A stretch of DNA of 64,000 bases, taken from positions 49,350-113,349 of IMG/VR virus record IMGVR_UViG_3300025030_000050; one strand, given 5' to 3'. Under the pieces are notes generated by a model that worked only from the letters and a program-made list of their open reading frames with translations, did not search any database and was not told where the DNA came from. How positions within the stretch are numbered: position 1 is the stretch's first letter; each line of letters starts with the position of its first letter. Source of the DNA: a virus. The position numbers were made by a program, and so were the translations under genes. Shown here one piece after another: positions 16,174 through 49,467 of this stretch.

Positions 16174-16583
16174 TTTTTTACTTCTTCATCCTCAACCAAG
16201 TCCAGTTCCTTCTGTAGCTCGCCCAGACACTTATTAGCCCATTTAGCAAACACAGGACTGCCATAAAATAATTTGAGTTTATTTTCATCTGTACAAGGTA
16301 TTGACTCCCCATTTTTTTGCATCAATGTCCACGTCTCAATTTGATAGCAGATAATGGCATCATTAAACTTCATCATGATATCATCATTACCATCAACATC
16401 AATTACACTGTCCATTCTTCTTGTAAGAGTGTTGGGAATATATTTCTGTTTTGACTTAAGACCTAATTTTTTTCTAATTTCTTGCATTTTTTCATCAGGA
16501 ATAAGCCTGAAATTAACACTCTCAGTTTTATTTTCATCCCAATAAAATTCCCGTGATGGGTTCAAACATTCCAAATCCCACAT
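16170..16583 (-). CDS. Tail assembly chaperone (gpG-like)
   Basis: Between tail tube and TMP; ends EEVKN at slippery A AAA AAC. Confidence 0.85.
   Translation of the reverse strand: MWDLECLNPSREFYWDENKTESVNFRLIPDEKMQEIRKKLGLKSKQKYIPNTLTRRMDSVIDVDGNDDIMMKFNDAIICYQIETWTLMQKNGESIPCTDENKLKLFYGSPVFAKWANKCLGELQKELDLVEDEEVKN
16173..16179 (-). other. -1 programmed ribosomal frameshift heptamer A AAA AAC
   Basis: GTA AAA AAC TAA; X XXY YYZ pattern in the correct frame. Confidence 0.8.
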
Positions 16584-17328
16584 AAATTTTTCTCTCCCTT
16601 TTTATGTTTCTCTTTATGGCACTTCTTACAGAATGTTTGCCCATTGCCAACATTCCAAAGTTCACCACAATTTTCAGCTTCTTCTATTGTCTTAATCTCG
16701 TTTTCTTTTATTATCTTAGCAAATTCTTTAATATGATGAGCGTTTAGATCACCGTTACCTCTAATAAGACACTTTTCACATGTAAAATCATCTCTGATAA
16801 AAACAAGATTTCTCCATTCTTTATATTTATCGAGCTTTCTTATTCTTTTTACTAAACTAGTAATTCCACCTTTCCAATTAGGATTTTTATCTCCATTCTT
16901 TTGCTTCACTAATTTACTTATTTTTAATTTATGTTCTTCAGTAAATTTTTTACCTAAATGAGAATCACTTATTTTCTTTTTACTTTCTTCTGTATGAGTC
17001 TTACCTAATAAAGAATTGCTAATTTTATTTTTGTCTCTTCGGTATGATGTTTCCCATAAAAGGGATTTCCTTCACCTACAAGACTAATTTTCAAAGCAAC
17101 ACTTATCTTTTTATTATGGATCTCTGGCCTATTTTTATTATAGTGCCCAGAGATATATTTATTCCAAACTAATTTCCATCTATCAAAGGAAACATGTTCT
17201 CCACAACCACAAGAATATAATGGAGACATTTTATTTTTTAAATTATCCAAATGTCCTTTTATAAACTTATGCCTTTTATTTGTTACAATTTCACCACAAC
17301 CACACAAGCAAAATCTAATATCACCCAT
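16562..17328 (-). pseudogene. NUMOD3-repeat HNH homing endonuclease split by a 1-nt frameshift (pseudogene or sequencing error)
   Basis: CGCG motifs and GKHHTEETK repeats continue in another frame (GKTHTEESK, GKKFTEEHK) into NPNWKGG...RDDFTC...AHHIK...CKKCH. Confidence 0.8.
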
Positions 17329-17362
17329 TTTTAATATCTCTGTAATATCACTGATTATAAAA

Positions 17363-17416
17363 TAATAGGCAACAAGTTCAGAATACTTGCTTTCGGTTGG
17401 CCAACCTAGCCCATTA
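17363..17416 (-). ncRNA. Putative three-way-junction cis RNA element, copy A
   Basis: P1 TAATGGGC/GCCTATTA, TA, P2 GGTT/AACC, GAAA, P3 GCAAGT/ACTTGT. Confidence 0.55.
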
Positions 17417-17424
17417 CAATCAAA

Positions 17425-17841
17425 TTATACCAACGTCATAAAACCAGAAACTTTGCAAGAAAATGAAGCAGTAACTAACTGTGATTTATCAGCATCTACG
17501 TTCCATTCCGTAATCCAGACATAGGATAACGGGTTAGTAGTTGATGGAGTATAATAACTGTTATCGTCTATATAGAAACGGATATCACTTACACTCGTGT
17601 TACTAGCATTGTAATTTCGTAATGAGGTCTGACCGTTAGCATCAGTACCGTCAAACAATCCGTTAAAACTAATAGTCCCACCATCACGTAAACCCGGACG
17701 AAATTGTTTCCATTCATCTCCAAATGCTGAAGTTTCCAACAGATCTGTGGTGACGCCTGACATTGACCACGTTCCCATTAAAGAAATACTATTTGATCCT
17801 AAAGTTACTTTACCATCAGCACCTCTATAAGATGTCGCCAT
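17425..17841 (-). CDS. Major tail tube protein
   Basis: YRGADGKV...WS...ETSAFGDEWK...GLRDGGTISF...SFSCKVSG, typical tube pattern. Confidence 0.88.
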   Translation of the reverse strand: MATSYRGADGKVTLGSNSISLMGTWSMSGVTTDLLETSAFGDEWKQFRPGLRDGGTISFNGLFDGTDANGQTSLRNYNASNTSVSDIRFYIDDNSYYTPSTTNPLSYVWITEWNVDADKSQLVTASFSCKVSGFMTLV

Positions 17842-17844
17842 ATT

Positions 17845-18501
17845 TTAACCCTCCATATTTTGCAATTTCTTCACATGTTTATATAAAGCATATGTTGACC
17901 AATTTATTTCTAAAGTTGACAAATGCCCTATATCTATAGTCGTATCACAAAAAATACGATACCCATTCTGTTTCAATTTATAACAAAAACCAATATCTTC
18001 TCCAACAAGACTTCCTTTTTCATCTCTACCAAATTCAAACCAAGGAGGGTCTATCTTCAAAAAGACCTCAGTATTATACAATACGCAACCACATCCAGTA
18101 GCATCAATTTCGAGCAACTCTTTTCTTTCTCTCGAATCTAAAATATCCTCATCTGAAACATGGACATACATACTTGGAATCCCGCGATATAAAATACAAT
18201 CAAATCCCGGATACCTACGATGAACTATAGAAGAAGTTACATCTTTATTATGAGATAAAAGTTTTTCAATCGTATCTACAGGGAATACCTGATCACTGTC
18301 CATCATCAATAAATGAGTACAACCATTTTCTAAAGCTCTTTCAACTAGCTGATTTCTAACATCAGCAATATTCATTCCACTATATTGAGGCCTTAGATAT
18401 AAAAAACTCGGCTTTCGCATCATTACAAAACTATCAAGAAACGCTGCTGGGACCGTTGGGTCTACTAATGGAATTCCTATAGCAAGTTTAATTTTTTCCA
18501 T
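17845..18501 (-). CDS. GT-A fold (GT2-like) glycosyltransferase, paralogue 3
   Basis: RNQLV, THLLMMDSD (DxD), GCGC, GEDIGFC, IGHL. Confidence 0.88.
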   Translation of the reverse strand: MEKIKLAIGIPLVDPTVPAAFLDSFVMMRKPSFLYLRPQYSGMNIADVRNQLVERALENGCTHLLMMDSDQVFPVDTIEKLLSHNKDVTSSIVHRRYPGFDCILYRGIPSMYVHVSDEDILDSRERKELLEIDATGCGCVLYNTEVFLKIDPPWFEFGRDEKGSLVGEDIGFCYKLKQNGYRIFCDTTIDIGHLSTLEINWSTYALYKHVKKLQNMEG

Positions 18502-18514
18502 AATTTCTCCCGAA

Positions 18515-19306
18515 TTATAGGTTATTCAAAAACTCTTCAATTTCTTTATCTGTTTTATTTTGTTTCTTCAAAAGATAAAGACACTTATTTCTTTTTAATA
18601 GTTTATCAACATTTAAGCTTTTAACTGTTGATTCATGTGCTTGATGTAAAGTCAGTAGATCATCTCTTAAGATAAATCCTATCCCACTTTTTTCTACATC
18701 GTCCCTAAAGGCATCATCATCATAAGCATAGCCCTTACTAAATCTTTCATCAAATCCACCCATCTTTAAATAATTTTCTTTTGATAAACAACTACAAAAA
18801 TGATATCTCGCATTCCTAAATTTTGTATGTTGATACCAAGAATGATGTTCGTATTTAAAACTATCAAAGGAATCAGAGAATAATTTAAATTTGTGGATAT
18901 TCTCACAACCGCATACTATATAAGAATTTGGTTGATTGTCAAAGATCTTGTCAAACCCGGCCAGAATATTTTCTTTATGAAAAACTTCTGGATTTGTTAT
19001 GCAAATATATTCACCGCTCGCTTTAGAAACACCTAAATTAAATAATGGAGCGGGGTTATGATTATTGATAAAATTAGATTCTACCAACTTGATATCAATA
19101 TACTTATCGGCATTTTTAGTAAAAAACTTTAATATTTCTTTTAATTTATGGTGTTCTTTACCATCCTCTCTGTTTTTAACATCTTCAACAATTATTACTT
19201 CATAATCATCTCTATTTTTATAATGATGATAGTAAGACAACAATGTATTATGCAGCCATCCAGCCCTTTTTATATACGGGAATACTATTGAATATTTTTT
19301 ACTCAT
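18515..19306 (-). CDS. GT2/GT7C-like glycosyltransferase
   Basis: SIVFPY, EVIIVED, NLGV...GEYI, GGFDERF...YDDD, HQAH. Confidence 0.88.
   Translation of the reverse strand: MSKKYSIVFPYIKRAGWLHNTLLSYYHHYKNRDDYEVIIVEDVKNREDGKEHHKLKEILKFFTKNADKYIDIKLVESNFINNHNPAPLFNLGVSKASGEYICITNPEVFHKENILAGFDKIFDNQPNSYIVCGCENIHKFKLFSDSFDSFKYEHHSWYQHTKFRNARYHFCSCLSKENYLKMGGFDERFSKGYAYDDDAFRDDVEKSGIGFILRDDLLTLHQAHESTVKSLNVDKLLKRNKCLYLLKKQNKTDKEIEEFLNNL
19104..19131 (-). promoter_or_regulatory. sigma28/FliA-type promoter, intragenic
   Basis: TAAAGTTT-N12-GCCGATAA. Confidence 0.8.
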
Positions 19307-20123
19307 TAATACCAGCCATTAATTTTAGAAGAAAATTGTCAAAGGTTTCAATATTTTCTTGTGTTACAATATTTTCGTATTCACTAGTTTTTTCAGCACC
19401 AGCAAACCAATGAATACCAACCGTATTCTCAAATAAATTAGAGTGCTTGCCAAAAATTAATTCAATTTGTCTCCAGTCAAATGGATAGACAGTTGTAAAT
19501 GGAATATTATCAATTTTACATTCATGTTTTTCTGAAAAATCTTCAGTATTTTTTTTGTTATATTTAAAAAAAGAAGTAAATAAATCTCTCCCAATTGTTT
19601 GATATTGCAAATTATCTATTTTATTTATAGAGTTTACACACATATCAAACAATTGTTTAAAAAATTTATTATCCCCAGCACTTGCCAAAAATCCAATATT
19701 ATGACAATTATAGTGATAACAAATTAGAGTATCTTTATTTTCAAATTTATTAAAAATTTTATCTACAGAAGAAGTATAAAAAATATCAAAGTCTGACCAC
19801 AAGCCCCCAACAGATGAAAGCAAACTCAATCTTAATAAATCCGACTTATGAACTTCAGATATTTCTTTGGCTAATTTAAAATCAGTTTCAACCAAAGACA
19901 CATTTTTTATATTAGCCAAATCATCAAAATAGTCCTTCCCTACAGGGCAATATTTTTTTTGTTCAAACCCATCCCATTTAATTTCTTTATTAATATTTTT
20001 AGGATAGTAAACAAAAATTTGCCAATCCGGGTTTAATTTAGAAAAAGAAACAACTGTCAAATATTTCATATAAGACAATGGTTTATTTTTACCCCAATAT
20101 AGATGAATTTTCTTAGGTATCAT
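19299..20123 (-). CDS. GT32/OCH1-like DxD glycosyltransferase
   Basis: MIPKKIHLYW, KSDLLR, GGLWSDFD, YPFDW, GIHWF. Confidence 0.9.
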   Translation of the reverse strand: MIPKKIHLYWGKNKPLSYMKYLTVVSFSKLNPDWQIFVYYPKNINKEIKWDGFEQKKYCPVGKDYFDDLANIKNVSLVETDFKLAKEISEVHKSDLLRLSLLSSVGGLWSDFDIFYTSSVDKIFNKFENKDTLICYHYNCHNIGFLASAGDNKFFKQLFDMCVNSINKIDNLQYQTIGRDLFTSFFKYNKKNTEDFSEKHECKIDNIPFTTVYPFDWRQIELIFGKHSNLFENTVGIHWFAGAEKTSEYENIVTQENIETFDNFLLKLMAGINE

Positions 20124-20668
20124 TTATTCTCCCAAATCGCATACGTATTTTTGTCAATATTATCTGTAGATGTTTTAAACCCAAATTTTTTAAATACTCT
20201 ATCTGGTATAAAACATTTGTGCTCTTGATATTTGTTTATTCCAGTGCCTTTCCAATCTGAATCTGGAGAGTTCTCCATCCATTCAAATATATTATTTTTC
20301 TGACCCAACCAATTGATGTTAATATTGTCAAAGAAATGAGATGGTGTATAAATAATAACCTTTTTTCTAGCCATTCTTTTCATCTTTTTTATAAGATTAT
20401 AAGCTTCTTTAAAATCAAGATGCTCTAATATATCTAAGGCAATTACAACATCAATTGTGTTTATTCCAAATTCATATTTTGTTATATCGGCACAAATAGC
20501 ATTTACGCCCAGCAACTTAATTTTATTTATATAAGGCTCATATATATCAAATCCAACAAAAGATTTACACCTTAACCCCATAACCTCTTGCAATACCCCG
20601 CATCCAAGGCTTGAAACAGAATCGTTTCCAGTTATTTCTTTTTGAACTAAATCACCTAGCCAATTCAT
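20120..20668 (-). CDS. Class I SAM-dependent methyltransferase
   Basis: SLGCG, GFDI, DVVIALDILEHL, IIYTP. Confidence 0.88.
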   Translation of the reverse strand: MNWLGDLVQKEITGNDSVSSLGCGVLQEVMGLRCKSFVGFDIYEPYINKIKLLGVNAICADITKYEFGINTIDVVIALDILEHLDFKEAYNLIKKMKRMARKKVIIYTPSHFFDNININWLGQKNNIFEWMENSPDSDWKGTGINKYQEHKCFIPDRVFKKFGFKTSTDNIDKNTYAIWENK

Positions 20669-20676
20669 AGTAAGCC

Positions 20677-21738
20677 TTAAATAAAATTAATATGTTTTGG
20701 TTTATCTTTGATACAATAATTTATGAATTCATTTTTAGCTTTATAAAGACAAGGATTTTTACATCTCAGATCAGGATTATGAGATTTAAACATATTGATC
20801 TTGTCATCACTCATCCACAAATCTTTGAACGATTGATTTTTTATAGAACCAATCTTCCCTTTTTTATTATACGCAAGTGTACAGCAAGTATAGACATTAT
20901 AATCAGCCCCTACATAAGCAAGTAAATCTTTTGTAGGACAAAAATTATAGTCTTGAACTCCCTCAAACATGTCTTTCATTCTATCATTAAAAAGATTAAA
21001 AACAGTAAAATTATCATCAGATAGTTCTTGAGCTTTTTTAGCCAACTCAAAAGAATCTTCATATATGCCATCAAAATAAGAATAGCCATCTGGGGTAAAA
21101 GCAGCAGATATTCTAAAATTATCTACTCCAATTTCTTTAAATAATTTTGCTGCATCAAATATTTCTTTGTAATTATATTTGTTAACAACAAATCCTGCTC
21201 CTATAACACTATCTTTTTTGTATTTAACTAAATTTTTAATATTTTCAATAGTCCTGAAAAACATCTTTTTATTTACTTTTCTAAAAGATGAATATGTTTC
21301 TGGTGTAGCACAATCAACTGATATTCTAACCCAAGCTGAATCGCTTAAAATCTTACACAATTCATCATCTAACGCCATGCCATTTGAAACTAGAGCTAGT
21401 TCTAGTTTTCTATCTAATATATCTCTGAATATATTTTTAATTTTTGGGTGGACAAGAGGCTCTCCTCCTCCGGTTATTTGAATAGCTCTTACCCCCATAT
21501 CAACACAAGAATCTAACGTTTCAACAATTTTTTCATAAGAAAGTAAGTCTTTATCATTAAATATTTCATTTGATTTATTCCCCTTCAAGCGATACGCACA
21601 TGTTAAACAAGAATTGTTACACTTATTTGACGGAATAATCTGGACTTGCAATGGATTTGGTTGTTCTCCATCTTTAAACTGAATTAATTTGTCAAAGCTA
21701 TGAATAATTTTGTATGGTGAATATTCCTCTTTAATCAT
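20677..21738 (-). CDS. Radical SAM enzyme with SPASM/twitch domain
   Basis: CNNSCLTC, TGGGEPL, SNG, RISVD; C-terminal C...YTCC...IGS...W...C. Confidence 0.93.
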   Translation of the reverse strand: MIKEEYSPYKIIHSFDKLIQFKDGEQPNPLQVQIIPSNKCNNSCLTCAYRLKGNKSNEIFNDKDLLSYEKIVETLDSCVDMGVRAIQITGGGEPLVHPKIKNIFRDILDRKLELALVSNGMALDDELCKILSDSAWVRISVDCATPETYSSFRKVNKKMFFRTIENIKNLVKYKKDSVIGAGFVVNKYNYKEIFDAAKLFKEIGVDNFRISAAFTPDGYSYFDGIYEDSFELAKKAQELSDDNFTVFNLFNDRMKDMFEGVQDYNFCPTKDLLAYVGADYNVYTCCTLAYNKKGKIGSIKNQSFKDLWMSDDKINMFKSHNPDLRCKNPCLYKAKNEFINYCIKDKPKHINFI

Positions 21739-22364
21739 TTTTCTCCCCTATTCCAAATTGCCGAAAACTCTTTATCTACTTCAACTGTCCCCAAATGTTT
21801 ATTTGTACAACTCGTATCTATAAATATTTTATAGCCAGCTTGTTTAACTAAATTACAAAAATAAACGTCTTCACCAATATCGAATTGAATGTTAGGATCT
21901 GGATTTTTCATAAAAGAAAAATAAGGCTTTTTAATTTTGTTGAAAACATCCATATTAACTAATAAACATGCTGCGCCAACACTATCTACTTCAATTAACT
22001 CATTCTCTGGGACATTATCTATCGTTTTATAATTGTTTATCATACCATTAAAAGCACAGACTGAATATGGTGTAGTCCTCATAAAAGACAACCCAGATAC
22101 AATAGGTAAGTTGTGTGAAAGTAACTTAATTATTGTATCTGGGTTATGTCGATGGTCTACATCAAGAAAAAGTATGTGCGTACAGTTGTATTTTTGTGCG
22201 GCGTCAACTAATTGATTTCTCATTGATGCCAGTCCTTGATAACCACCAGCTCTAAAAAATACGTGATTATCAGGCTTGCGCATAGCCATGAACGATTCAA
22301 AAAATTCAACTGGTACTGTATTGTGTGTTAATGGCACTCCTATAGCTAATTTTACGTCTTTCAT
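21735..22364 (-). CDS. GT-A fold (GT2-like) glycosyltransferase, paralogue 2
   Basis: RNQLV, THILFLDVD, GAACLL, GEDVYFC, KHLG. Confidence 0.88.
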   Translation of the reverse strand: MKDVKLAIGVPLTHNTVPVEFFESFMAMRKPDNHVFFRAGGYQGLASMRNQLVDAAQKYNCTHILFLDVDHRHNPDTIIKLLSHNLPIVSGLSFMRTTPYSVCAFNGMINNYKTIDNVPENELIEVDSVGAACLLVNMDVFNKIKKPYFSFMKNPDPNIQFDIGEDVYFCNLVKQAGYKIFIDTSCTNKHLGTVEVDKEFSAIWNRGEK

Positions 22365-22395
22365 TTTTCTCCCGATAATGAATGTTTTATTTTTC

Positions 22396-22422
22396 TTATC
22401 GGAAAATTATAAAAAGACTTTA
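22396..22422 (-). promoter_or_regulatory. sigma28/FliA-type promoter heading the glycosyltransferase cassette
   Basis: TAAAGTCT-N11-TCCGATAA, 31 bp before the ATG. Confidence 0.75.
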
Positions 22423-22839
22423 ACTTTTTTGAATAACAACGTTAAATTCGATTGAGTAAACCCAAGATTCATCTTCTTCTATCCAAAACGGGCCAAATAT
22501 ATTCTTTAACCCCATTCTATGACTATTATATCCTGTTATAGATAATTTATAATTATTAAACTGAGTAATTAAATAGCCTAAAATCGTACCTGCTTCAGAA
22601 GAAGAATTTATTGTATTAGAATGAATATTAAATTGGCAAGTGATGTCATCAATCGCTTGTGTCTGATCAGAAACTGAATTAAAAAAACAGTCATAAGAAT
22701 GGTTAAATAAAAAATATCTAACAAATGGAAAGACTGGAACTTGTGGGGCCTTTACAAAATATAACCTGCTACCTATAGATGTATTAAAATTACTAGAAGC
22801 CGTTCCCCTTGAATAAATTGCAGTAGAAATAGAATTCAT
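22420..22839 (-). CDS. Tail terminator / tail completion protein (DUF3168-like)
   Basis: AIY...RLY...APQ...FPFV...QFNI pattern and position. Confidence 0.8.
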   Translation of the reverse strand: MNSISTAIYSRGTASSNFNTSIGSRLYFVKAPQVPVFPFVRYFLFNHSYDCFFNSVSDQTQAIDDITCQFNIHSNTINSSSEAGTILGYLITQFNNYKLSITGYNSHRMGLKNIFGPFWIEEDESWVYSIEFNVVIQKS

Positions 22840-23306
22840 TATTTTCCTAAATATTTTTTAAATATATTTAAAATTTCAGATGTATTTTGCTTTAACTGTG
22901 GTCTCAAAAATGGCCTTTTAGCAGAATACCATGTCAGGCCCAACTCATGTCTGACACCGTTATCATTTGTAGTTCCAACTCTCCCAAAAATTGCTTGGAT
23001 ATTGTTACCATAAATAATTGGGCTTATTTTGCTATCTCCACTTTCTGCCCCACCACTTTCTCCCCCAGATGTCACCCAAGAAATAGACCCGTTCAAATCA
23101 CCAGTATCTGGAGCAGGAGGAACACCAGGGACAGAAGCTTGATGCAAACCTTGTCCTGGGACTTTAGATGGCCACATTCTGCCCGTACCTTCAATCATAG
23201 AATCTCTAACATTAGCTGTCACGGCGACACAGCTTTCTTTAATTGCTTCTTCGCCAATAGTTTTAACAGCAGCCAAAACCTTGTCGTCAAACCAAACAGC
23301 TTTCAT
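22839..23306 (-). CDS. HK97 gp10-like neck protein
   Basis: HQAS.PG.PPAPDTGDL..SI, ELG, RPFLRP. Confidence 0.88.
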   Translation of the reverse strand: MKAVWFDDKVLAAVKTIGEEAIKESCVAVTANVRDSMIEGTGRMWPSKVPGQGLHQASVPGVPPAPDTGDLNGSISWVTSGGESGGAESGDSKISPIIYGNNIQAIFGRVGTTNDNGVRHELGLTWYSAKRPFLRPQLKQNTSEILNIFKKYLGK

Positions 23307-23620
23307 TCTACTTTCTTCAATTCTAATGATAGCGTAATATTCTTATTGGCGAGATTATCTACAAAATTTATTTGATATAATATACCATCACAAAATGCCC
23401 TATCTTTCTCTGTTACAACAATATCTTTTGGAAAATCACAGTTAAAATAATGCGTAGAAATAGTTTTTGTCGAATCGTTGACAAATCTTTCCCTGGCTTT
23501 AAAAGCAATAAGAGTCCCTTTTAAAGTCTTAATGCCATACCAAGACGTTGTGTAACCACCCATTCCATCAGAAACAGATGTCTGTCTATGTATTTCTAAT
23601 TTGACTTTATGGCCAACCAT
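23303..23620 (-). CDS. Head closure protein (SPP1 gp16-like)
   Basis: SDGMGG...W, STH, DR...YQI..VDN. Confidence 0.88.
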   Translation of the reverse strand: MVGHKVKLEIHRQTSVSDGMGGYTTSWYGIKTLKGTLIAFKARERFVNDSTKTISTHYFNCDFPKDIVVTEKDRAFCDGILYQINFVDNLANKNITLSLELKKVE

Positions 23621-23622
23621 TA

Positions 23623-24780
23623 CTATACCTTGCGTTTTTTATATCTTTCAAGAATCATTTTAGCTTCTTTTGGAAAATCTCCAGCTTCAAAAACAGATAA
23701 AACAGAATTATTACCAACCCTATATTGAGTTAGGCCAAACCCATCTTCATTCCTTCTATTGTAAAAATACTTCACCAATATTTTTACCGCCAGTTGCAAA
23801 TTTTTCGGCATATTGTCAGCAGAATACCCAGCAGTATAATCAACATAGATATTTCTAAAACCTTCTGGCCATCCACCAAATTTCCGAATTTGAGCTTTAT
23901 CTAAATCAACATAAAAACTATCTTCATGATCGTCTGTTTTATATAAATCAACCCAATTACTGTCTATCACATTTAGCCCATACACAGGAATCAATTCTGT
24001 GGACTTAACGCTACCGTAGACAGACGAAAGAATTTCTGCTTCCCATCCATTGCCTAAGGCGTTAATCGCGGCTACAACAGCCGTTACAGTAGTATTAGAG
24101 GCAAATGTAACAGAAGTATCGGCAGTACCATCTAAAACAAGTCTTAACCCAGTTGTAGTAACAGAGACAGTTGCTGTTGATGTTGAGTTAGTGTTTCTGA
24201 CTTTCATTACTCCAATTATCCATACCGCAACTCTATCTACTGCTGTTATGGGATAATTGTTTAAATTAATTATAGAACCGCCGCTACTATCGTACCTTTC
24301 CAATCTATAACTTGTTTCTTCAAATACGCGTCTACAATAATCAGAAACAAGTCCTTCAACATCTTCTCTGATTATATCAACTATCAGAGTTGGATCTCCG
24401 GCTTCAATATCTGAGACTATAGTTTGAGCCGCACTTTTATTGCTATCAAGTCCAAGTGTAAGTCCGGCGTCAGAACTTGTATGAGTATAAGCAATTGTCT
24501 TGCCCGTTCCAGCATTTATAGTAAAAAGTCTTGTTGTAGAAGAATATGATACAGCAAATGTTATTACACCTGTGCCGGTCAAAGTAGTGTTTGCGTTCAT
24601 TTGAGTCTGAAGATGAGAGGCTAGCCCAGATCCATCATATGTACCATCACTCAAATCTATATTTACTGGACCACCACTAGAACTAGTAAGATTAAGAGTG
24701 TTATTCGCTTTAGTTATTGTAAAATATCCTTTATCAATATCTAAAAATGTAAGACAATCATCTAAACTTACAATGGCCAT
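23623..24780 (-). CDS. Head-tail connector (gp6/gp15-like) with two inserted beta-rich domains
   Basis: IVSLDD..FL, YCRR.F, YPITAV, VDYTAGY, P..LQLAV...YNRR core split by Thr/Ser/Gly-rich inserts. Confidence 0.8.
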   Translation of the reverse strand: MAIVSLDDCLTFLDIDKGYFTITKANNTLNLTSSSGGPVNIDLSDGTYDGSGLASHLQTQMNANTTLTGTGVITFAVSYSSTTRLFTINAGTGKTIAYTHTSSDAGLTLGLDSNKSAAQTIVSDIEAGDPTLIVDIIREDVEGLVSDYCRRVFEETSYRLERYDSSGGSIINLNNYPITAVDRVAVWIIGVMKVRNTNSTSTATVSVTTTGLRLVLDGTADTSVTFASNTTVTAVVAAINALGNGWEAEILSSVYGSVKSTELIPVYGLNVIDSNWVDLYKTDDHEDSFYVDLDKAQIRKFGGWPEGFRNIYVDYTAGYSADNMPKNLQLAVKILVKYFYNRRNEDGFGLTQYRVGNNSVLSVFEAGDFPKEAKMILERYKKRKV

Positions 24781-24792
24781 AATTTTACCTAA

Positions 24793-25107
24793 TTATTCTT
24801 GATCTACAAATTTATTATAAAGACTCATGTGCTCTTCAGTCAAAAAATCTTTTTCTTTACAAACTTTTAATCTGCCTTTAATTATATTTAAAACATTTTT
24901 AGGAATATAAAATTCTTTTTCAGAATCATTAGTCCATTTAACTTCTCCATCTTCTTGATGGGTTATTGAGTACAAGTCATGCTCATCTTCAGTAAAAGAC
25001 AAATATCTTAGACAATCTTGATACATACCATAAATAGTCATGTCCACTTCTTGAGGCAATAAATTTAAAAGCAAGATCCTATCAAAAACACTCAACTTAA
25101 TCAACAT
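24793..25107 (-). CDS. Hypothetical phage protein
   Basis: ORF with GGGAG RBS. Confidence 0.75.
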   Translation of the reverse strand: MLIKLSVFDRILLLNLLPQEVDMTIYGMYQDCLRYLSFTEDEHDLYSITHQEDGEVKWTNDSEKEFYIPKNVLNIIKGRLKVCKEKDFLTEEHMSLYNKFVDQE

Positions 25108-25128
25108 TTAAATCTCTCCCGTCTAAAG

Positions 25129-25521
25129 TTATGGCGAAACTGAAATCGTGACTTTCTTTTCAGGGTTAACGTAGAAATTGATTGGCTTAATGATACGGTC
25201 ATGAGCCACCCATTTTACCTCAGTTGAATAATCACTTTCGTAACCATAGACATCATAAGCTGTGGCGGCGAAATAATAGGTTGTTCCAACAACAAGATCC
25301 CCTACTGAGCCCTCAACATGACCATCCACCATTGTGCCCATTTTCTGGTCAACATCTAAAGTGTATTTTTTTGACGCTGTGCCATAGTAGATCTTATACC
25401 CGGCAAGGCTGGTCTCTGCATTTGGAGACCAAGAGAACCTTGCCTCGGCAGCAAAAGCATAACTGGATAAGAATAAAACAAAAATAGTCGCAAAACAAAT
25501 TTTCTTTAACATAATTTTCAC
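25129..25521 (-). CDS. Secreted fibronectin type III domain protein
   Basis: Signal peptide ending AFA; W.PN.E..LAGYKIYYG, GTTYYFAATAYD..G.ES.YS. Confidence 0.88.
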   Translation of the reverse strand: MKIMLKKICFATIFVLFLSSYAFAAEARFSWSPNAETSLAGYKIYYGTASKKYTLDVDQKMGTMVDGHVEGSVGDLVVGTTYYFAATAYDVYGYESDYSTEVKWVAHDRIIKPINFYVNPEKKVTISVSP

Positions 25522-26138
25522 CTTGGATTAAATCTCTCCCAATATGTTTGATCTATTTCAATTGTACCTAAATGTTTGTTATCACAACCGGTATCACAAT
25601 ATATTTTATATCCAGCCTGTTTAGCCTTTAAACAAAATGCAAAATCTTCACTTACAACACCGTCGCCAAACCTATAATTCATTTCGAACCAAGGATAATT
25701 AATTTCTTTAAAAACACTGACATCAACCAATAATGAAGCAGCTCCAATAGCATCTACTTCAATTAATTCATTTTTATTCCATTGTATTATATTCTTGAAT
25801 TTATCACCATCTTGTTCGAATATAATTGGGTCATATGGATAAGAACGCCTAAAAGATAAACCAGATACAATATCTTTATCATGTGACAATAATTTAAGGA
25901 TGGTATCGGAATGATGTCTATGATCTGTATCAAGGAACAATATATGGCTAAATGTCCCATCTTTAAGAACGGCATGAATTATTGAATTTCGTTGATCGTC
26001 TACTCTTCCCCTATTCCCAATTATTACACTATGTTGGGGTTTCTTCAACTCTATCCATGATTCAAAAAATTTGGTCGATAAAAAATCCCAGTTGCAAGGA
26101 AGACCAATGGCGATGTTAATATTACCCATTACAAACAC
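25518..26138 (-). CDS. GT-A fold (GT2-like) glycosyltransferase, paralogue 1 (likely start 26129)
   Basis: SHILFLDTD, GAASLL, SEDFAFC, KHLG. Confidence 0.88.
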   Translation of the reverse strand: MFVMGNINIAIGLPCNWDFLSTKFFESWIELKKPQHSVIIGNRGRVDDQRNSIIHAVLKDGTFSHILFLDTDHRHHSDTILKLLSHDKDIVSGLSFRRSYPYDPIIFEQDGDKFKNIIQWNKNELIEVDAIGAASLLVDVSVFKEINYPWFEMNYRFGDGVVSEDFAFCLKAKQAGYKIYCDTGCDNKHLGTIEIDQTYWERFNPR

Positions 26139-26875
26139 CAGCTAATTGCTAGTTCCGGGAAGTTTAATTTATGAGGCAATCCTTCTCTTATAATAAATTT
26201 ATCTCTTGCTAATGCTGCATCTTTAGCAGTTTTAAATGTTGTTTTGTTAAATACTGTCTTCCCATCATTTCTTACAATTGCAGAAAAAGATTTTCTCTCC
26301 GGTTTATAAGACACCCCACAATATCCAGAAGTGTTATTCGACTGTAATAATCTTTTATTAAATCCATTCTCTCTTATAGTTATAAATCTACAATTCCAAG
26401 GAGCATAAGGACCATCATTATCGATTCGATCTAATTGAAGACCTTCTTCCCATCCATTATTTAAACACCAATCATTAAACACGGGGAATTCAAACACCCA
26501 TTCACTACATACATAAATTCCACGCCCACCATAACTGTCATACGATCCATTATTCACATTTGAACATCTACTATTGATATGTTTCCAAAGTGAATAAATT
26601 TTATTCCTTGATTTTCTTCCACCCATCCCATGAATTGTGGATCTCTCTACTAATTTCTCTATTTTAAGACAGCCGCAAGATTGTGATTTCCCACTCCTCA
26701 AAACTTGTAAATTAACTAATTTAATTGTCTCTTTATCACATAAACATTTTACAACGACTAGCCTACCTTGCCTCTGACTATATGGCAAATCAGCATAAAT
26801 TACAACCCATCTTCCATAAACGCATCCCAAAACATATTCTTTTACATTATTACTCATAGTATTCCTCCTATACAA
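26129..26875 (-). CDS. HNH homing endonuclease with AP2-like C-terminus (likely start 26857)
   Basis: SQSCGC, YGGRGI.VC.EW, LDRIDNDGPY.P.NCR, NTSGY.GV, AA.ARD. Confidence 0.92.
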   Translation of the reverse strand: MYRRNTMSNNVKEYVLGCVYGRWVVIYADLPYSQRQGRLVVVKCLCDKETIKLVNLQVLRSGKSQSCGCLKIEKLVERSTIHGMGGRKSRNKIYSLWKHINSRCSNVNNGSYDSYGGRGIYVCSEWVFEFPVFNDWCLNNGWEEGLQLDRIDNDGPYAPWNCRFITIRENGFNKRLLQSNNTSGYCGVSYKPERKSFSAIVRNDGKTVFNKTTFKTAKDAALARDKFIIREGLPHKLNFPELAISWCL

Positions 26876-26882
26876 TCCATAA

Positions 26883-26943
26883 TATATTGAGAGAAGAGGT
26901 GGATTAAATCTCTTGTCGGGTGCGCTCCCTATCCCTCAATATA
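26883..26943 (-). ncRNA. Putative three-way-junction cis RNA element, copy B
   Basis: P1 TATATTGAGGGA/TCTCTCAATATA, TA, P2 GGG/CCC, GACA, P3 AGAG/CTCT. Confidence 0.55.
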
Positions 26944-26951
26944 ACTATATT

Positions 26952-27269
26952 CTAACTTGCGTAAACCACTAATCCTTTGATTACATGGAGATTTGTTACG
27001 GCACCACTGGCAAAATCAGCACCAGCAGTTGAACCGACTGTATAGGCTGCTACATTTAAACTTGTCCCCATATCGGCTGAACCCACCACGATCAGTTTAT
27101 CAGCGGACTGATCCCAAAGCATGTATTTGCCAGTAGTATCGCCATAACATTTAAAATCCAAACCAGTAGCGTCTTCCCCTAAAACAATACCAGTTGTTGC
27201 ACCAGTACCTACTTTCTTAAAAATTAGGCTTCCACTTGACCATTCTGATTTAACTAAAGTAACGGGCAT
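26952..27269 (-). CDS. Probable virion head-associated protein
   Basis: Gly/Thr-rich, strong AGGAGG RBS, located in the head module. Confidence 0.65.
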   Translation of the reverse strand: MPVTLVKSEWSSGSLIFKKVGTGATTGIVLGEDATGLDFKCYGDTTGKYMLWDQSADKLIVVGSADMGTSLNVAAYTVGSTAGADFASGAVTNLHVIKGLVVYAS

Positions 27270-27320
27270 AATTATATCCTCCTAATCCATACAAATGTTT
27301 ATCAGCGGTGGTTCCGCATT

Positions 27321-27542
27321 CTACTTCTTATTCTTGCCTTTCTTAACTTTTGGGTCTTTTACCATCTTATCTTTTATCGGAAAGTCTAACGACTTATTCT
27401 CTATTTTAGAATCGAGAATAACAACGATACCTTTACTTTCCAAATCCAATGCTTTCTGTTTTAATATAGTCATTTTCATTGGGGCTTTATTCCCCATCCA
27501 CTCCCCAATGAATTCTACTTTTACATATTCTAATTTATTCAT
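27321..27542 (-). CDS. Small basic protein in the head module
   Basis: Lys-rich, ends KDKMVK; GGGAG RBS. Confidence 0.7.
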   Translation of the reverse strand: MNKLEYVKVEFIGEWMGNKAPMKMTILKQKALDLESKGIVVILDSKIENKSLDFPIKDKMVKDPKVKKGKNKK

Positions 27543-27559
27543 TTTCTCCCTGCTTTAAA

Positions 27560-27592
27560 GACAAAGCTTGAGTGAAATATCTCAAGCTTTGT
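27560..27592 (-). terminator. Terminator-like hairpin after the capsid-decoration gene
   Basis: ACAAAGCTTGAG-8 nt-CTCAAGCTTTGT followed by CTTT. Confidence 0.7.
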
Positions 27593-27605
27593 TTAAATCA
27601 ATAAA

Positions 27606-28091
27606 TTAAACAATGGCTGTTGGTTTTACTTCTTGGATAATCTTACCACCACCAAGAATACATACAATTGTCCCATCTACTGGGTCATCAGTAGTTTCAT
27701 CAGTGGCGAGCCTTGCATATTTATCAGTACCAGAAAGTCTAGAACTATCGATCTCAATCGCATAAATTTGGTCGCTACCAGCAGTAGTTGTGAACCCATA
27801 CGCAGTAGCTGTCTGCATATCAGACCAAGTATCACCACTAGTACAAGTCCAATAATTAAATGCTACAGTTGTCGCAGTTGAAGGCGTAACATCATCACAA
27901 CTTTCAACACTGATACGTGCAACACCAGTAGAACCAGCCGCTTTTTGAATTACCCAAAGACACTGTTCGTATTTGCCAAGATTAACAATATCCGTATTAG
28001 GACTACCATTAAACAAATCCTCATAAGCTGCTTGACTAGCACTAGGCATGGCGTTTACAACATGAACATTCTGAAAAAGTCTTCCACCCAT
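27606..28091 (-). CDS. Capsid decoration/cement protein
   Basis: Directly after MCP; beta-rich; GGAGG RBS. Confidence 0.65.
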   Translation of the reverse strand: MGGRLFQNVHVVNAMPSASQAAYEDLFNGSPNTDIVNLGKYEQCLWVIQKAAGSTGVARISVESCDDVTPSTATTVAFNYWTCTSGDTWSDMQTATAYGFTTTAGSDQIYAIEIDSSRLSGTDKYARLATDETTDDPVDGTIVCILGGGKIIQEVKPTAIV

Positions 28092-28146
28092 AATTTATAC
28101 CTCCATATTTATATTATAAAATTATACCCCCTACGATATTAATAAA

Positions 28147-28214
28147 ATGTGGAAGCTAAGACGGGAGATTTCTTAGCTTATCAACTTTAGTTTAAAACCA
28201 AAGCCTATCCACAC
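28147..28214 (-). ncRNA. Putative three-way-junction cis RNA element, copy C
   Basis: P1 GTGTGGA/TCCACAT, TA, P2 GGCTTTGGTT/AACTAAAGTT, GATA, P3 AGCTAAGA/TCTTAGCT. Confidence 0.55.
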
Positions 28215-28222
28215 TAATATTA

Positions 28223-29503
28223 TTAACTTCTTGAAGTAATTACAATAAACGGAGAAATTGTGTCAGAACTGGCCTCTGGAGGCACCAATGCCTGCGGCAT
28301 CCAGCTTTGACCAGCAACGTAAAAGCGCCACCGATATGCCATCTGATCAACGTCGAATTTTAGGTGCATAGAAGTGTCAAAACCAATACCACCATCACCA
28401 CTAAGCATACCGAGTAGATACTGTTTCATGTCAGCAAGAATCAAATCGCCAGCAGTGCCTAAAGCTTTTGCATGGTGGCTAAAAACAACAGGGAGCCCAA
28501 ACAACGTATTATACGGTTTCCCACTAGCCCCACCCGCTGGCATAAATACAGGGACACCAGCGGTGCCTACAGTTAGAGACATGCTTGCAAGCTGAGGAAG
28601 AGTATTGGGGTTGGCAATCCAAACAGCATTAGATGGATTAATGCAACGCGCATACATTTTAATAACATTTTCCCAAACAATGGTCGTAGCTGGTTGACCA
28701 GTCTCAGCAGTGATAGAGACAAGACAAGGGGCAGAGAGTAACCCCTGTGGCTGGCCAGCGCCAGTACCTTTAAGGATAACCCTGTTCATTTCATAATTAA
28801 AACCATCAGTAAACCCTTCACGCAATATATTCTCCATACTCATAGGAGAAAAGCGAAGAATTTCATCACTAGCATAGGCAAGAGCTGTTACTTTATGAAG
28901 ATTTAGATTAATATAACCAAACTTGATATTCTTTTCAGTAAGAGACCCTTCCTCTTCAGTCCATTGCCAAGCAACGTTACCATATACCAAGTTCCCAGAT
29001 TTATCGAAACCATTGACATAAGGAATTTTTACAGAATTTGACTGCATAGGAATTTGAGTACACCGACCCATCAACTCATTCTGTTCTTTAGCCGCAACAA
29101 GAAGGTTTTGCCGAAATTCTTCAGGAACCAGATAACCACCGGCTTCGCCGTCACCAACATTCTGAGAAGGAGAACCAGCAGCTTTAATGGTTGCACAATT
29201 ATCTTCCCATTTAGAAAGTTCTGGAGAGAGTTTACGATATCCAGACTGAGCAGCTTTAGCAACATCAGTTGCAAAGTGGGCAAGTGTTTTAAACCCAGCC
29301 TTCTTATCTTTTTCTGCTTCACTCTGACCAACCACAATACGTTTTTCAATCGGCTCTACTGCGGCTTTAATTTTTGCATCAATTTCAAGAGCAAGCGATT
29401 CTTTAAACTTAAGAACAGCGCCTTCAACTACGGAAGCAGCACCCTTGCTGATAACTTCATTAAGTTCATCAATAGTCATCTTACTTTTAGTTTCTTCAGC
29501 CAT
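28223..29503 (-). CDS. Major capsid protein, HK97 fold
   Basis: GGYLVPEEF, W..E, GTGAGQPQG, W..N, TLFGLPV, GD...D...Y. Confidence 0.97.
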   Translation of the reverse strand: MAEETKSKMTIDELNEVISKGAASVVEGAVLKFKESLALEIDAKIKAAVEPIEKRIVVGQSEAEKDKKAGFKTLAHFATDVAKAAQSGYRKLSPELSKWEDNCATIKAAGSPSQNVGDGEAGGYLVPEEFRQNLLVAAKEQNELMGRCTQIPMQSNSVKIPYVNGFDKSGNLVYGNVAWQWTEEEGSLTEKNIKFGYINLNLHKVTALAYASDEILRFSPMSMENILREGFTDGFNYEMNRVILKGTGAGQPQGLLSAPCLVSITAETGQPATTIVWENVIKMYARCINPSNAVWIANPNTLPQLASMSLTVGTAGVPVFMPAGGASGKPYNTLFGLPVVFSHHAKALGTAGDLILADMKQYLLGMLSGDGGIGFDTSMHLKFDVDQMAYRWRFYVAGQSWMPQALVPPEASSDTISPFIVITSRS

Positions 29504-29576: not shown

Positions 29577-32042
29577 TTAATCCTCAAATTCAATTATACC
29601 CTTAGCTTTTTTAATTCTATCTTCCACTAAATCAGAAAGATCGATCTCATCAAATGTCTTTTTAACTTTATCAACAAATATATCTTTTATTTGAATAGCA
29701 TCAAAGTCAAATTCGACTTCTGATTTTTTAACCGGGATTTCTATTTCTATAAAATCAATGCTTTTTGTCTCTATATTATTGCCAATATCTTTTTTCTTAT
29801 CTACGTTCTTTAAATCTTGAATTAAGCATCTTTGCTCTTTCATTTGTTCTAAAGACTGAATTAGAGCTTCTTCAATACTAATTCCATCATCTTCAGCAAT
29901 CATTTTAGCAAATTCTACTAATTCTTTTAAATGAGCGCCAGAATATCCATCTGTTAATTTAGCAAACTCAGTTATAATATCCTTATCGGCATCTTTTATA
30001 AAAAACTTTAATAGTTTTATTCTGTTATCTTCATCTGGAAGTGAAAAATTTATAATATGATGAAACCTACCAGGCCTATCAATCAATGCGTCTGGAATAT
30101 CTTCTGGGAAATTTGAAGTTAAAATAGTTAGAACACCTTTATTTTCCCTTATCCCATCCATTTCAGTTTTTAACAAATCAACAGTATAGCCACTAAGCCA
30201 TGTATCAATATCTTCTAAAAAGAAAACACTAGGCGCAAGAGTTCTAGCCATTTCAAAGCCAATGCCTAAAGCACTAGCAGCTCCCCAGCCAAAATCTTTA
30301 GATGAAGCCCAGATAAAAGTCGTATCTGCTTTATTCATCAAAATCTTCCCAGTTAATGTTTTGCCCGTACCTGGGGAACCAATAAACATCATTCCACGAC
30401 TAGGAGACTTTGTAGATAATTTTTCAATATTCTTCTTAATTTTATCCTTTGCTTCATCATTTGGGAAAATGACATCATCCCATCCTATTTCCTTAACCTC
30501 AAGAAATTCTCCACCAATAGAAAATTTTTCACCTTTAAGATAATTATTCTCATCAACCCATTTTATAGCATCTCTGACAAACGATTTATTTAATTCAATA
30601 TTTTTATTAGAAGTAAAAATATCAATACTTAAACCACCCCAATTTTTATAAATTTGAAAAACAAACCTATCACCATCATTTGATTTATAAAATTGAGTTC
30701 CAGTTACTAAAAACTCTTCTTCTAATTTTGAATTCAATTTCACAACAGAATGCTGCAATGGGATTTCAGATCCATTACCATAAAAATTTCTTTGATCAAG
30801 GAGTTCATGCTTAGACAAAACATTCTTAAATGCAGAAAGAAAATTGCCTTTCATAGCATTCGGGATAAAAAAATCTGTAGTGAAAATATCTTTTATTTTA
30901 CACCCCAAATATTTCGTAAAAATTTTATATTCAAATCCTGCCGGTTCTGTCCTTACTTGAGTAATATCAAAATCATTGACATATTCTTTTTTTATTTTTT
31001 CTAAATCAACATTTTTTACTTTTAAAGAATTGAAAAATTTAATTCTTGCATCTATTACATCTGTTTCCTTTTTAATCTCTACTTCCTGTTTCTCTTTATT
31101 AAAATCATCCAATTCTTTTTCAATGATTATGTCTATGTCTATCTCTGATTCTGATTCTTTAACATCCTCTAATTCCTGATCTTTCTCAATTAAAGTTTCA
31201 TCAATATCCACATTATCGGAAATTAACTCCCCTTCCGGTTCATTAATAACGACAGTTTTTTCAATTATTTCTTTATCGGAATCTTTAGTTACGTCTTCAT
31301 TATTTTCTTTACTGCTAATAAATTCTATATCAACATACCAATTGCCCATTTTTTTGATATCTTCTTTTTCCTTACTTATGAAGTCATCACCAGCCAATAA
31401 TCCAAAAACTTCATCAGGGATATTTATTTCTTTAACTATTTCTTCTTTTTTCTTTTCTAAATCAACAAACCCAACAATTTTTGCTTTCTCATTATCTTGG
31501 TCAATTTCATTTACAAAATCAACAATAGATTTTGTAGTAATCTCTCCATTAGCCACTCTTTCTACTAATGCTGAGTAATGGTCCGGCACTACAACAGCTG
31601 ATATTTCCAAAAGTTCAACTTTTTTAAAAACCCTATCAGGGATTTTGCCGCCTCTAGTATATTTTTTTATTTCAACTTCATTCATATCATCTTTATATAA
31701 AATTTCTTTAGGAATAAAGCCTACAGAAAATGCATTCATAACTCCGCTAGAGTATAACTTGTAAAAAGTTTCTCCTTCTTCAGTTTCAGCAAACTTAACC
31801 TTGAATTTTAATCCCTGACCAGGATAGACTTTAGTCCAAGCTGCCCTACCAATAGGAGGTCTATCATATTTATGGAAAGCGGGGATGACAGGATTTTCTA
31901 TAAAATTTTCTAATTCCCAAGCATTATCATCAATTAAATCTCCACTTCTATCTATAGAATCTGATTTATTCGCATAAGCAACTACAGATTTTTCTACCTC
32001 ATTCACTTCTTTTTGAAAAATATTTTTAAATAACTTTTCCAT
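29577..32042 (-). CDS. HK97-type prohead protease fused to an AAA+ ATPase
   Basis: DRSGD, NPV..FH...PIG, AFSVGF, ELLEIS.V.VP; later GSPGTGKT, FFLEDID, TSN.P..I..ALIDRPGRF. Confidence 0.9.
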   Translation of the reverse strand: MEKLFKNIFQKEVNEVEKSVVAYANKSDSIDRSGDLIDDNAWELENFIENPVIPAFHKYDRPPIGRAAWTKVYPGQGLKFKVKFAETEEGETFYKLYSSGVMNAFSVGFIPKEILYKDDMNEVEIKKYTRGGKIPDRVFKKVELLEISAVVVPDHYSALVERVANGEITTKSIVDFVNEIDQDNEKAKIVGFVDLEKKKEEIVKEINIPDEVFGLLAGDDFISKEKEDIKKMGNWYVDIEFISSKENNEDVTKDSDKEIIEKTVVINEPEGELISDNVDIDETLIEKDQELEDVKESESEIDIDIIIEKELDDFNKEKQEVEIKKETDVIDARIKFFNSLKVKNVDLEKIKKEYVNDFDITQVRTEPAGFEYKIFTKYLGCKIKDIFTTDFFIPNAMKGNFLSAFKNVLSKHELLDQRNFYGNGSEIPLQHSVVKLNSKLEEEFLVTGTQFYKSNDGDRFVFQIYKNWGGLSIDIFTSNKNIELNKSFVRDAIKWVDENNYLKGEKFSIGGEFLEVKEIGWDDVIFPNDEAKDKIKKNIEKLSTKSPSRGMMFIGSPGTGKTLTGKILMNKADTTFIWASSKDFGWGAASALGIGFEMARTLAPSVFFLEDIDTWLSGYTVDLLKTEMDGIRENKGVLTILTSNFPEDIPDALIDRPGRFHHIINFSLPDEDNRIKLLKFFIKDADKDIITEFAKLTDGYSGAHLKELVEFAKMIAEDDGISIEEALIQSLEQMKEQRCLIQDLKNVDKKKDIGNNIETKSIDFIEIEIPVKKSEVEFDFDAIQIKDIFVDKVKKTFDEIDLSDLVEDRIKKAKGIIEFED
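29983..30010 (-). promoter_or_regulatory. sigma28/FliA-type promoter, intragenic, about 480 bp upstream of MCP
   Basis: TAAAGTTT-N12-GCCGATAA. Confidence 0.8.
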
Positions 32043-44153: not shown

Positions 44154-44230
44154 TGGGGTGAAGTGTGAGAATCGAACTCACTAGAACCTGATTCACAGTC
44201 AGGAGGATCAACCGTTTTCCTTACTCCACC
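44154..44230 (-). tRNA. trnH: tRNA-His (GUG) with G-1:C73 pair and encoded CCA
   Basis: Acceptor GGTGGAGT/ACTTCACC, anticodon arm CCTGA-CTGTGAA-TCAGG, T arm GTGAG-TTCGATT-CTCAC. Confidence 0.92.
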
Positions 44231-49143: not shown

Positions 49144-49467
49144 ATGAAAGCATCTACAAAGGTATACAGAGTGCTTAGAGCAATGACCGTACATGTACCA
49201 TACAATGACATCGAAATAGATATAGAAGCACTGCAAAACGTTAAAGGCGGGGATTTTATTATAGGTATACGCAAGCTTGGCACAACTAGCTTTATTTATC
49301 GAAAACCGTGTACTAATTGGCTTGATGAATACAAGGAAGTGACAGATACATGGCCTAATATTGAATGGTATTGCGGCAGTGTTAATGAAGGTTGGATTGT
49401 GTCATTAAGTGATAAAGACGTACCAAAAATGCTCAATAATTGGCTTTATATGCATTTTGCTAAGTGA
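49144..49467 (+). CDS. Early hypothetical protein
   Basis: GAGGT RBS. Confidence 0.75.
   Translation: MKASTKVYRVLRAMTVHVPYNDIEIDIEALQNVKGGDFIIGIRKLGTTSFIYRKPCTNWLDEYKEVTDTWPNIEWYCGSVNEGWIVSLSDKDVPKMLNNWLYMHFAK

Follow-up and report, generated by a model that had tools for sequence, protein, structure and literature searches.

Three intergenic elements in a 64,000-nt stretch of viral DNA (the window: positions 49,350 to 113,349 of the 113-kb IMG/VR virus record IMGVR_UViG_3300025030_000050) represent a single kind of structured mRNA leader, the int-alpA type of Rfam (RF02996). On sequence grounds, and with a probability of roughly 0.55, we read this leader as a portable cis-acting element that controls how much an accessory gene is translated when it stands behind a highly translated one and, we infer, probably limits this translation. 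Other functions that such an RNA might have—exonuclease block, sensor, trans-acting small RNA, ribozyme, or terminator—are less well supported, and each is weighed below beside the evidence that bears on it. The window thereby supplies further members of an already catalogued but functionally uncharacterized RNA family.

The three elements, here A, B, and C, lie in a region (14 to 32 kb of the window) where every gene is encoded on the minus strand. They follow a tail-tube gene, a 105-amino-acid (aa) head-module gene, and the major capsid gene, respectively, and only 7–8 nt separate the stop codons of these genes (17425, 26952, and 28223) from the beginning of the first helix, P1. Folded alone, each copy adopts a three-way junction as its minimum-free-energy (MFE) structure (z = −2.05, −2.29, and −4.20 for A, B, and C). 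Read directly, the junctions run GGGC-UA-GG..CC-GAAAG-P3-UU-GCC in A, GGGA-UA-GGG..CCC-GACAAG-P3-(none)-UCUC in B, and UGGA-UA-GGC..-UGAUAAG-P3-CU-UCCA in C. The common scheme is UA past P1, a G that opens P2, GA(N)AA(G) ahead of P3, and 0–2 nt ahead of P1′.

A covariance model, R1, was built from seven copies from other phages plus copy B; A and C were not used. Run over all 64 kb with filters off, R1 scored B at 50.9 bits, A at 28.4 bits (E = 1e-5), and C at 26.6 bits (E = 4e-5), with the next match at 11.3 bits. The model thus finds A and C unseen and finds exactly three copies in the window. The whole record also holds three, and each related record holds one to four. Megablast of the 16.9–29.6 kb interval against GenBank phages returned zero matches. 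Together with the downstream complements of the P3 loops (CUGA/UCAG in A, UAAUCCA/UGGAUUG in B, CUCCC/GGGGG in C), the folds, spacings, and R1 scores uphold an earlier note on this DNA, which had described three elements with one topology and shared junction bases, starting within about 10 nt of virion stop codons and carrying P3 loops able to pair downstream.

The same note could assign the element to no named Rfam family, and here it has to be corrected. In a permissive Rfam scan, copy A matches RF02996 (int-alpA) over the full model with 40.6 bits (E = 1.6e-7), above the gathering score of 35.8 bits; the default whole-window scan had filtered this match out, and a search of the record itself with RF02996 likewise returned nothing, in both cases a filter loss rather than an absence. 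B and C have no Rfam match, even at E ≤ 10. Among members of the R1 set, RF02996 also matches loci L103, L030, and L039 with 38.5, 36.5, and 30.3 bits. Scores on both sides of 35.8 bits indicate that the phage copies form a continuum straddling the curated threshold; B, C, and most phage copies with P1 closing GGA/UCC and J23 GAYAA fall short of the Rfam model. R1 copies share the int-alpA junction P1-UA-P2-GAAAA-P3-CU-P1′ with covariation support, and the pairing in the int-alpA model between loop CCuU and 3′ AgGG has its counterpart in A, B, and C. The note had proposed a cmscan search against Rfam as a check and held that a match to a characterized family would remove the novelty; with copy A matching a catalogued family, novelty at the family level is gone by that criterion.

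Neither of the neighbors that give int-alpA its name was found, with no Phage_integrase or Phage_AlpA match in the 113-kb record; this neighborhood is not part of the RF02996 model definition. We found no published function for int-alpA. The accession RF02996 occurred in no paper searched, and the string "int-alpA" occurred in two papers, where it denotes gene order and not an RNA. The motif presumably goes back to Weinberg et al. 2017, who surveyed 224 motifs. The main text of that survey (PMC5737381) does not mention int-alpA.

We next consider the family at large. An IMG/VR pattern scan followed by R1 added 22 copies, with element GC contents of 43–82%, and the covariation set comprised 36 distinct phage copies. 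A canonical set of 83 copies from proteobacterial genomes was retrieved with a pattern from the Rfam consensus. Across the 36 phage copies, 88.7% of cells in the three helices are paired, against 64.8% after shuffling (0 of 500 shuffles as high) and 35–54% in a slid-partner control. Double-sided changes number 152, against 50 when shuffled, and both sides change in 12 of 17 pairs. G-U pairs are common, the first P3 pair being one position that has them, which indicates a sense-strand RNA and not a DNA structure; a DNA cruciform or recombination site is ruled out on this ground. The description of the element as a covarying cis RNA in the earlier note is thereby borne out.

Small three-way junctions with conserved junction bases in phage genomes invite comparison with self-cleaving ribozymes, which here would separate virion mRNA from nuclease mRNA. 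Related locus L120 also has a RAGATH-18 motif, from a class that is defined through genes linked to ribozymes. The element lacks the core of a hammerhead (CUGANGA ... GAAA), since its junctions read UA, GAYAA, and U, and no Rfam ribozyme family was matched; cleavage is the most improbable of the functions that we weighed, and a hammerhead-like reading is ruled out because the junction strands do not fit. At L120 the RAGATH-18 match (2344–2415, plus strand) is strong (69.5 bits, gathering score 44.9) and shares its phage fragment with a relic int-alpA-type leader about 2 kb away.

The P3 loop (L3) varies from copy to copy, and each is complementary to its own site past P1′, termed site 1. L3/site 1 pairs include UCCCG/CGGGA, ACCUAG/CUAGGU, AAUCCAU/AUGGAUU, AUUCCGA/UCGGAAU, UAUUCUGA/UCAGAAUA, and GAUCCGG/CCGGAUC. 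In an own-versus-other permutation of mean duplex energies, L3 paired with its own site 1 at −9.13 kcal/mol, versus −5.36 for those of other copies (34 phage copies), and 47 canonical loops gave −7.55 versus −5.41 kcal/mol. The Shine–Dalgarno (SD) region, termed site 2, is frequently a direct repeat of site 1; here the values were −7.50 versus −5.33 kcal/mol in 23 phage copies and −7.77 versus −6.35 kcal/mol in 41 canonical copies, a signal partly confounded by general SD likeness and by kinship of the copies. All four comparisons gave P ≤ 5e-5. When 21 phage leaders were folded, about 15 showed a small hairpin, P4, with the SD in its loop; the P4 stem is also variable.

This preference of each loop for its own adjacent sites over those of other copies argues against a trans-acting small RNA, in which a stable released junction would use the P3 loop as a seed for distant targets. 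Rfam does type RF02996 as "Gene; sRNA," and a pyrimidine- or U-rich tract follows P1′ in many copies. That tract is missing in high-GC phage copies, and a terminator scan left A, B, and C unflagged; we consider this function very unlikely.

Two mutually exclusive partners for L3 resemble an expression platform, and a riboswitch-like or protein-binding sensor would use the conserved junction (UA, G, GAYAA, U) to bind a small molecule or a conserved cellular protein that decides between them. The near-invariance of the junction nucleotides suits such a sensor, since all stems vary and element GC spans the full range given above. The downstream genes—nucleases, a chaperone, and genes of no assigned function—share no common metabolic theme, however, and no known riboswitch class was matched, so that we regard a sensor as unlikely.

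Spacing within the leader is nearly constant. P1′ and site 1 are 5–9 nt apart (5–10 nt in the general anatomy), site 1 and the start codon 15–22 nt, the distance at which an ORF start stands in canonical copies, and the start codon follows P4/site 2 by 5–10 nt. Stop-to-P1 distance is 5–13 nt in 54 of the 76 canonical copies with an upstream open reading frame (ORF) and 5–27 nt in most phage copies. The canonical proteobacterial int-alpA RNAs have the same layout as the phage leaders.

We propose that the leader would affect, in cis, how translation of the downstream gene is initiated. L3, an anti-SD-like loop, would partition between a decoy (site 1) and the real ribosome-binding site (RBS; site 2). 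Because P1 lies within reach of a ribosome halting at the upstream stop, upstream translation probably perturbs the fold, and in A, B, and C ribosomes terminating 7–8 nt ahead of P1 would influence it. Nuclease would in the end be made in small quantity compared with the abundant virion protein, whatever the context. The proposal of the earlier note that the RNA dampens translation is plausible; nothing observed here spoke for its other proposal, processing of the late mRNA.

Several observations weigh against this account. Transcription reaches site 1 before site 2, and in phage copies site 1 on average pairs more strongly with L3; the SD would then be free and the downstream gene ON by default. 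The strongly conserved junction purines exceed the needs of a simple SD mask, and the near-invariant junction bases hint at a bound ligand or protein or at a special three-dimensional fold. To these must be added the confounding of the site-2 signal, a stop-to-P1 distance above 30 nt in a minority of copies, and a −10-like hexamer just ahead of P1 in about half of the phage copies, by which some leaders may begin transcripts instead of following, on one RNA, an ORF that is translated.

Translational control in cis by such a leader has plausible precedents in T-even phages and in plasmids. Homing endonuclease genes of the T-even type (I-TevI, I-TevII, I-TevIII, segB, and Aeh1 mobE) carry RBS-sequestering structures that limit synthesis (PMC2988022). 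Like the leaders described here, these are cis RNAs directly upstream of a phage homing endonuclease gene in a long polycistronic late message, and both have complementarity to the SD. In the T-even structures, the SD is part of the stem of a simple hairpin and is freed by a late promoter inside the structure, and they form no conserved family; the int-alpA-type leader would instead work through the loop of a conserved three-way junction, a decoy site, and an SD in a hairpin loop, and its −10-like hexamers, where present, lie just upstream of P1 and not inside the structure. In the repZ/repA system of IncI1/IncB plasmids, RepZ cannot be translated without an RBS-adjacent pseudoknot, which is coupled to a leader ORF (PMC8053102, citing Asano & Mizobuchi 1998 and Praszkier & Pittard 2002). 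As described there, a distant hairpin loop likewise pairs beside the downstream RBS, with an upstream ORF ending nearby. In the plasmids the pseudoknot switches translation on and an antisense RNA counteracts it, whereas int-alpA-type leaders have no known antisense partner; the plasmid system has no three-way junction, no second (SD) site copy, and no sequence relation to the leaders. Canonical int-alpA itself agrees with the phage leaders in the three-way junction, the junction bases, loop-to-3′-site pairing, position past a co-directional stop, and SD-in-hairpin layout; the difference is that the elements here stand in a phage late operon ahead of homing endonucleases, with no integrase or AlpA gene in the record.

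A broader proposal, for which we put the odds on the low side, is that the int-alpA fold is a portable "ribosome hand-over" device for promoter-less selfish or accessory genes. P1 closure and the L3–site 1 pseudoknot would bring the terminating ribosome beside the SD shown in the hairpin loop, and the anti-SD-like loop would meter access to it. Homing endonucleases, TnpB, and island cargo would thereby draw a fixed small share of the ribosomes finishing the preceding gene.

Gene order and upstream sequence also bear on a role in RNA stability or processing, in which the junction and pseudoknot would block exonucleases and so give two genes unequal mRNA levels, by protecting the upstream virion mRNA from 3′–5′ decay or the downstream mRNA from 5′-end-dependent decay. 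The element always stands at the border of a high-expression and a low-expression gene, −10-like hexamers a few nucleotides before P1 would put P1 at the 5′ end of some transcripts, and the topology, in which three helices meet and the 3′ tail pairs with the P3 loop, resembles that of exonuclease-resistant viral RNAs (xrRNAs) such as those of flaviviruses. The likeness to flavivirus xrRNA ends at topology, with no sequence or covariance-model match and no match to any Rfam xrRNA family. Xrn1, the target nuclease of flavivirus xrRNA, is not known from bacteria. A stability element would also leave unexplained both the L3 match to the SD region and the constant spacing to the start codon, and the hosts cover lineages with different RNases; we think it improbable.

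The hexamers themselves (TATAAT/TATAAA, often extended and AT-rich) end 4–15 nt ahead of P1; about 17 of 33 phage copies have one, and they stand upstream of copy A (17424–17429) and copy C (about 28218–28226). A directly upstream promoter is absent as a family feature in the canonical high-GC copies, and the enrichment, confined to AT-rich phage copies, may be explained by base composition.

The three loci of the window comprise the following features, all on the minus strand.
17425..17841: gene upstream of copy A, for the 138-aa major tail (tail tube) protein (E = 5e-7 to PHROG major tail protein families; Pfam tail-tube match weak; stop codon 7 nt ahead of P1).
17362..17417: copy A three-way junction, P1-UA-P2-GAAA-P3-UU-P1′ (RF02996, R1, and MFE fold).
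17346..17356: copy A site 1, AAUCAGUGAUA, partner of P3 loop UAUUCUGA (read directly).
17335..17343: copy A site 2, ACAGAGAUA, overlapping a weak SD ahead of the ATG at 17328 (read directly).
16562..17328: frameshift-split endonuclease gene behind copy A (Zn-ribbon/NUMOD3 ORF 17005–17328 plus HNH ORF 16562–16909).
26952..27269: gene upstream of copy B, 105-aa head-module gene (beside the capsid gene in relatives, 77% identity).
26884..26942: copy B three-way junction (R1, 50.9 bits; MFE z = −2.29).
26872–26880: copy B site 1, AUGGAUUGU (duplex with P3 loop, −6.9 kcal/mol).
26859–26873: copy B P4 hairpin, with SD AGGAGG (26864–26869) in its loop.
26129..26857: gene behind copy B, for an HNH homing endonuclease of 242 aa when read from the ATG at 26857 (phrog_374, E = 8e-53; weak AP2).
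28223..29503: gene upstream of copy C, major capsid protein (PF05065 Phage_capsid, E = 1.4e-42).
28146..28215: copy C three-way junction with a long P2 (R1, 26.6 bits; MFE z = −4.20).
28126..28132: copy C site 1, AGGGGGU, partner of P3 loop CUCCC (duplex, −8.2 kcal/mol).
27606..28091: next virion gene past copy C, 161 aa, no assigned function (SD GGAGG at 28100–28104).

These loci appear to form a decay series. B is an intact cassette, its leader heading an intact HNH gene; its upstream 105-aa gene has no Pfam or PHROG match. A metagenome contig from another groundwater sample (run X15) diverges from the window at 26871, a point of the copy B leader that falls between site 1 and the SD, and carries a different P1′ and site 1 from there on; some strains may thus have this HNH gene behind a variant leader.

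Copy A appears to be decaying, with a frameshifted endonuclease and a bulged pseudoknot. The latter consists of 4 bp, a 1-nt bulge, and another 4 bp, and the homologous leader of related genome G002 (L044) has the perfect 8-bp partner UCAGAAUA. Both pieces of the endonuclease align to an intact 288-aa NUMOD3+HNH_2 protein of relative G001 (E = 2e-24 and 3e-22), and NUMOD3 repeats run on in another frame over 16910–17004.

Copy C is best read as a relic left after endonuclease loss. No nuclease ORF lies behind it, and its orthologs in L001, L002, and L003 show compensatory stem changes. At the orthologous site in G001 (L035), a 365-aa HNH gene (phrog_1271, E = 3.5e-30) follows the leader; L001 has a 91-aa ORF with the same N-terminal motif, and G002 shows the same empty state as the window. 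The earlier note had suggested that copy C lost its endonuclease, which fits these relatives, and that A and B precede unrelated HNH genes, which holds (a Zn-ribbon/NUMOD3 ORF with a separate HNH ORF behind A; a phrog_374 HNH gene behind B). Its interpretation of AGGGGGU as an orphan SD gives way to one as the pairing partner of the P3 loop.

Beyond the window, gene context was tallied for 34 distinct phage copies. Nuclease genes begin within about 30 nt downstream in about 20 of these and belong to at least five families, the types being HNH/AP2-type, NUMOD3+HNH_2, NUMOD4+HNH_3, GIY-YIG+NUMOD3, EndoVII-like, and one TnpB. About 10 of the 34 head small non-nuclease genes, such as one for a tail assembly chaperone, and 4 have no downstream gene of their own. 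The proposal that the RNA travels with free-standing homing endonucleases therefore stands as a strong association with unrelated nuclease families but not as an exclusive one. Searches of this record with Pfam HNH, NUMOD3, HNH_3, and GIY-YIG found no further endonuclease gene without a leader, and more distant relatives lack the element at orthologous sites.

Leaders are also modular. Between P1 and the ATG, the leader of copy B (head site, AP2-type HNH) shares about 90% identity with one that serves a NUMOD3-HNH gene following the tail-tube gene in G002, a different endonuclease family at a different site, with both flanks unrelated, and the copy A leader resembles the portal-site leader of G002. 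These resemblances point to a discrete, exchangeable module.

Such movement bears on a further alternative, a branched intrinsic terminator or attenuator behind highly expressed virion genes, with the nuclease link incidental because the same sites are favored. A plain hairpin and T-run do stand behind the capsid gene of relative L004, and AT-rich copies have U-rich tails. Yet L3 covaries with a partner that a transcript ending at the supposed terminator would not include, and the leader moves with nuclease genes between sites. We judge a branched terminator highly improbable. A generic intrinsic terminator is ruled out, given high-GC copies without a U tract and the absence of A, B, and C from the terminator-scan calls.

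In L074 (1383–1446, minus strand) and L058 (4206–4269, plus strand), a long-P2 int-alpA-type leader lies 34 nt ahead of a 409-aa TnpB (OrfB_IS605 plus Cas12f1-like TNB), so that an RNA-guided nuclease gene is also headed by this leader type. At the G001 portal site (L046, about 1590–1660), the EndoVII-like gene behind the leader is apparently frameshifted at an A-run just past the start codon, and the long ORF begins 97 nt further downstream.

Canonical loci have an integrase upstream in 26 of 60 cases, or a helix-turn-helix (HTH)/antitoxin protein. Their downstream ORFs are diverse and unannotated, with almost no Pfam matches and no PADLOC matches, and the idea that they are defense genes is accordingly not supported. 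Loci L165–L244 hold ORFs of 150–350 aa, an unannotated cargo pool directly behind P4-type integrases.

Other features of the window and its relatives stand apart from the leaders. An 821-aa ORF directly upstream of the capsid gene (29577–32042, minus strand) joins Peptidase_S78 with an AAA+ ATPase and lid domain; a prohead serine protease and AAA+ in one ORF is an unusual fusion for a head-maturation protease. Beside the tail-tube gene, a 218-aa ORF (17845–18501, minus strand) has a borderline match to Pfam Anp1 (glycosyltransferase-type; 29.3 bits, cut-off 28.8). A perfect 12-bp inverted repeat at 22090–22145 forms a hairpin inside the ORF at 21735–22364 (minus strand) and also gave a spurious miRNA-like match. 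The window has a single tRNA gene (44157–44229, minus strand; 48.3 bits), and G001 has three tRNA genes just upstream of the head-module gene (L040, 552–1096).

For the family, int-alpA changes from an orphan Rfam entry to something that can be tested: a modular leader that combines a covarying pseudoknot with a second site at the SD and a fixed stop distance, and that heads phage homing endonucleases over a wide GC range as well as variable cargo behind proteobacterial integrases. The window itself contributes one more set of copies and a useful decay series of intact, frameshifted, and relic states. If translational control in cis is correct, it would explain how toxic selfish nucleases are held at low, context-independent levels inside essential late operons and why one leader is swapped between unrelated nuclease genes; the leader might also find use as a natural insulator in the design of gene expression. 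Were the hand-over proposal also true, the fold would be a general cassette leader for mobile genes in phages and integrative islands.

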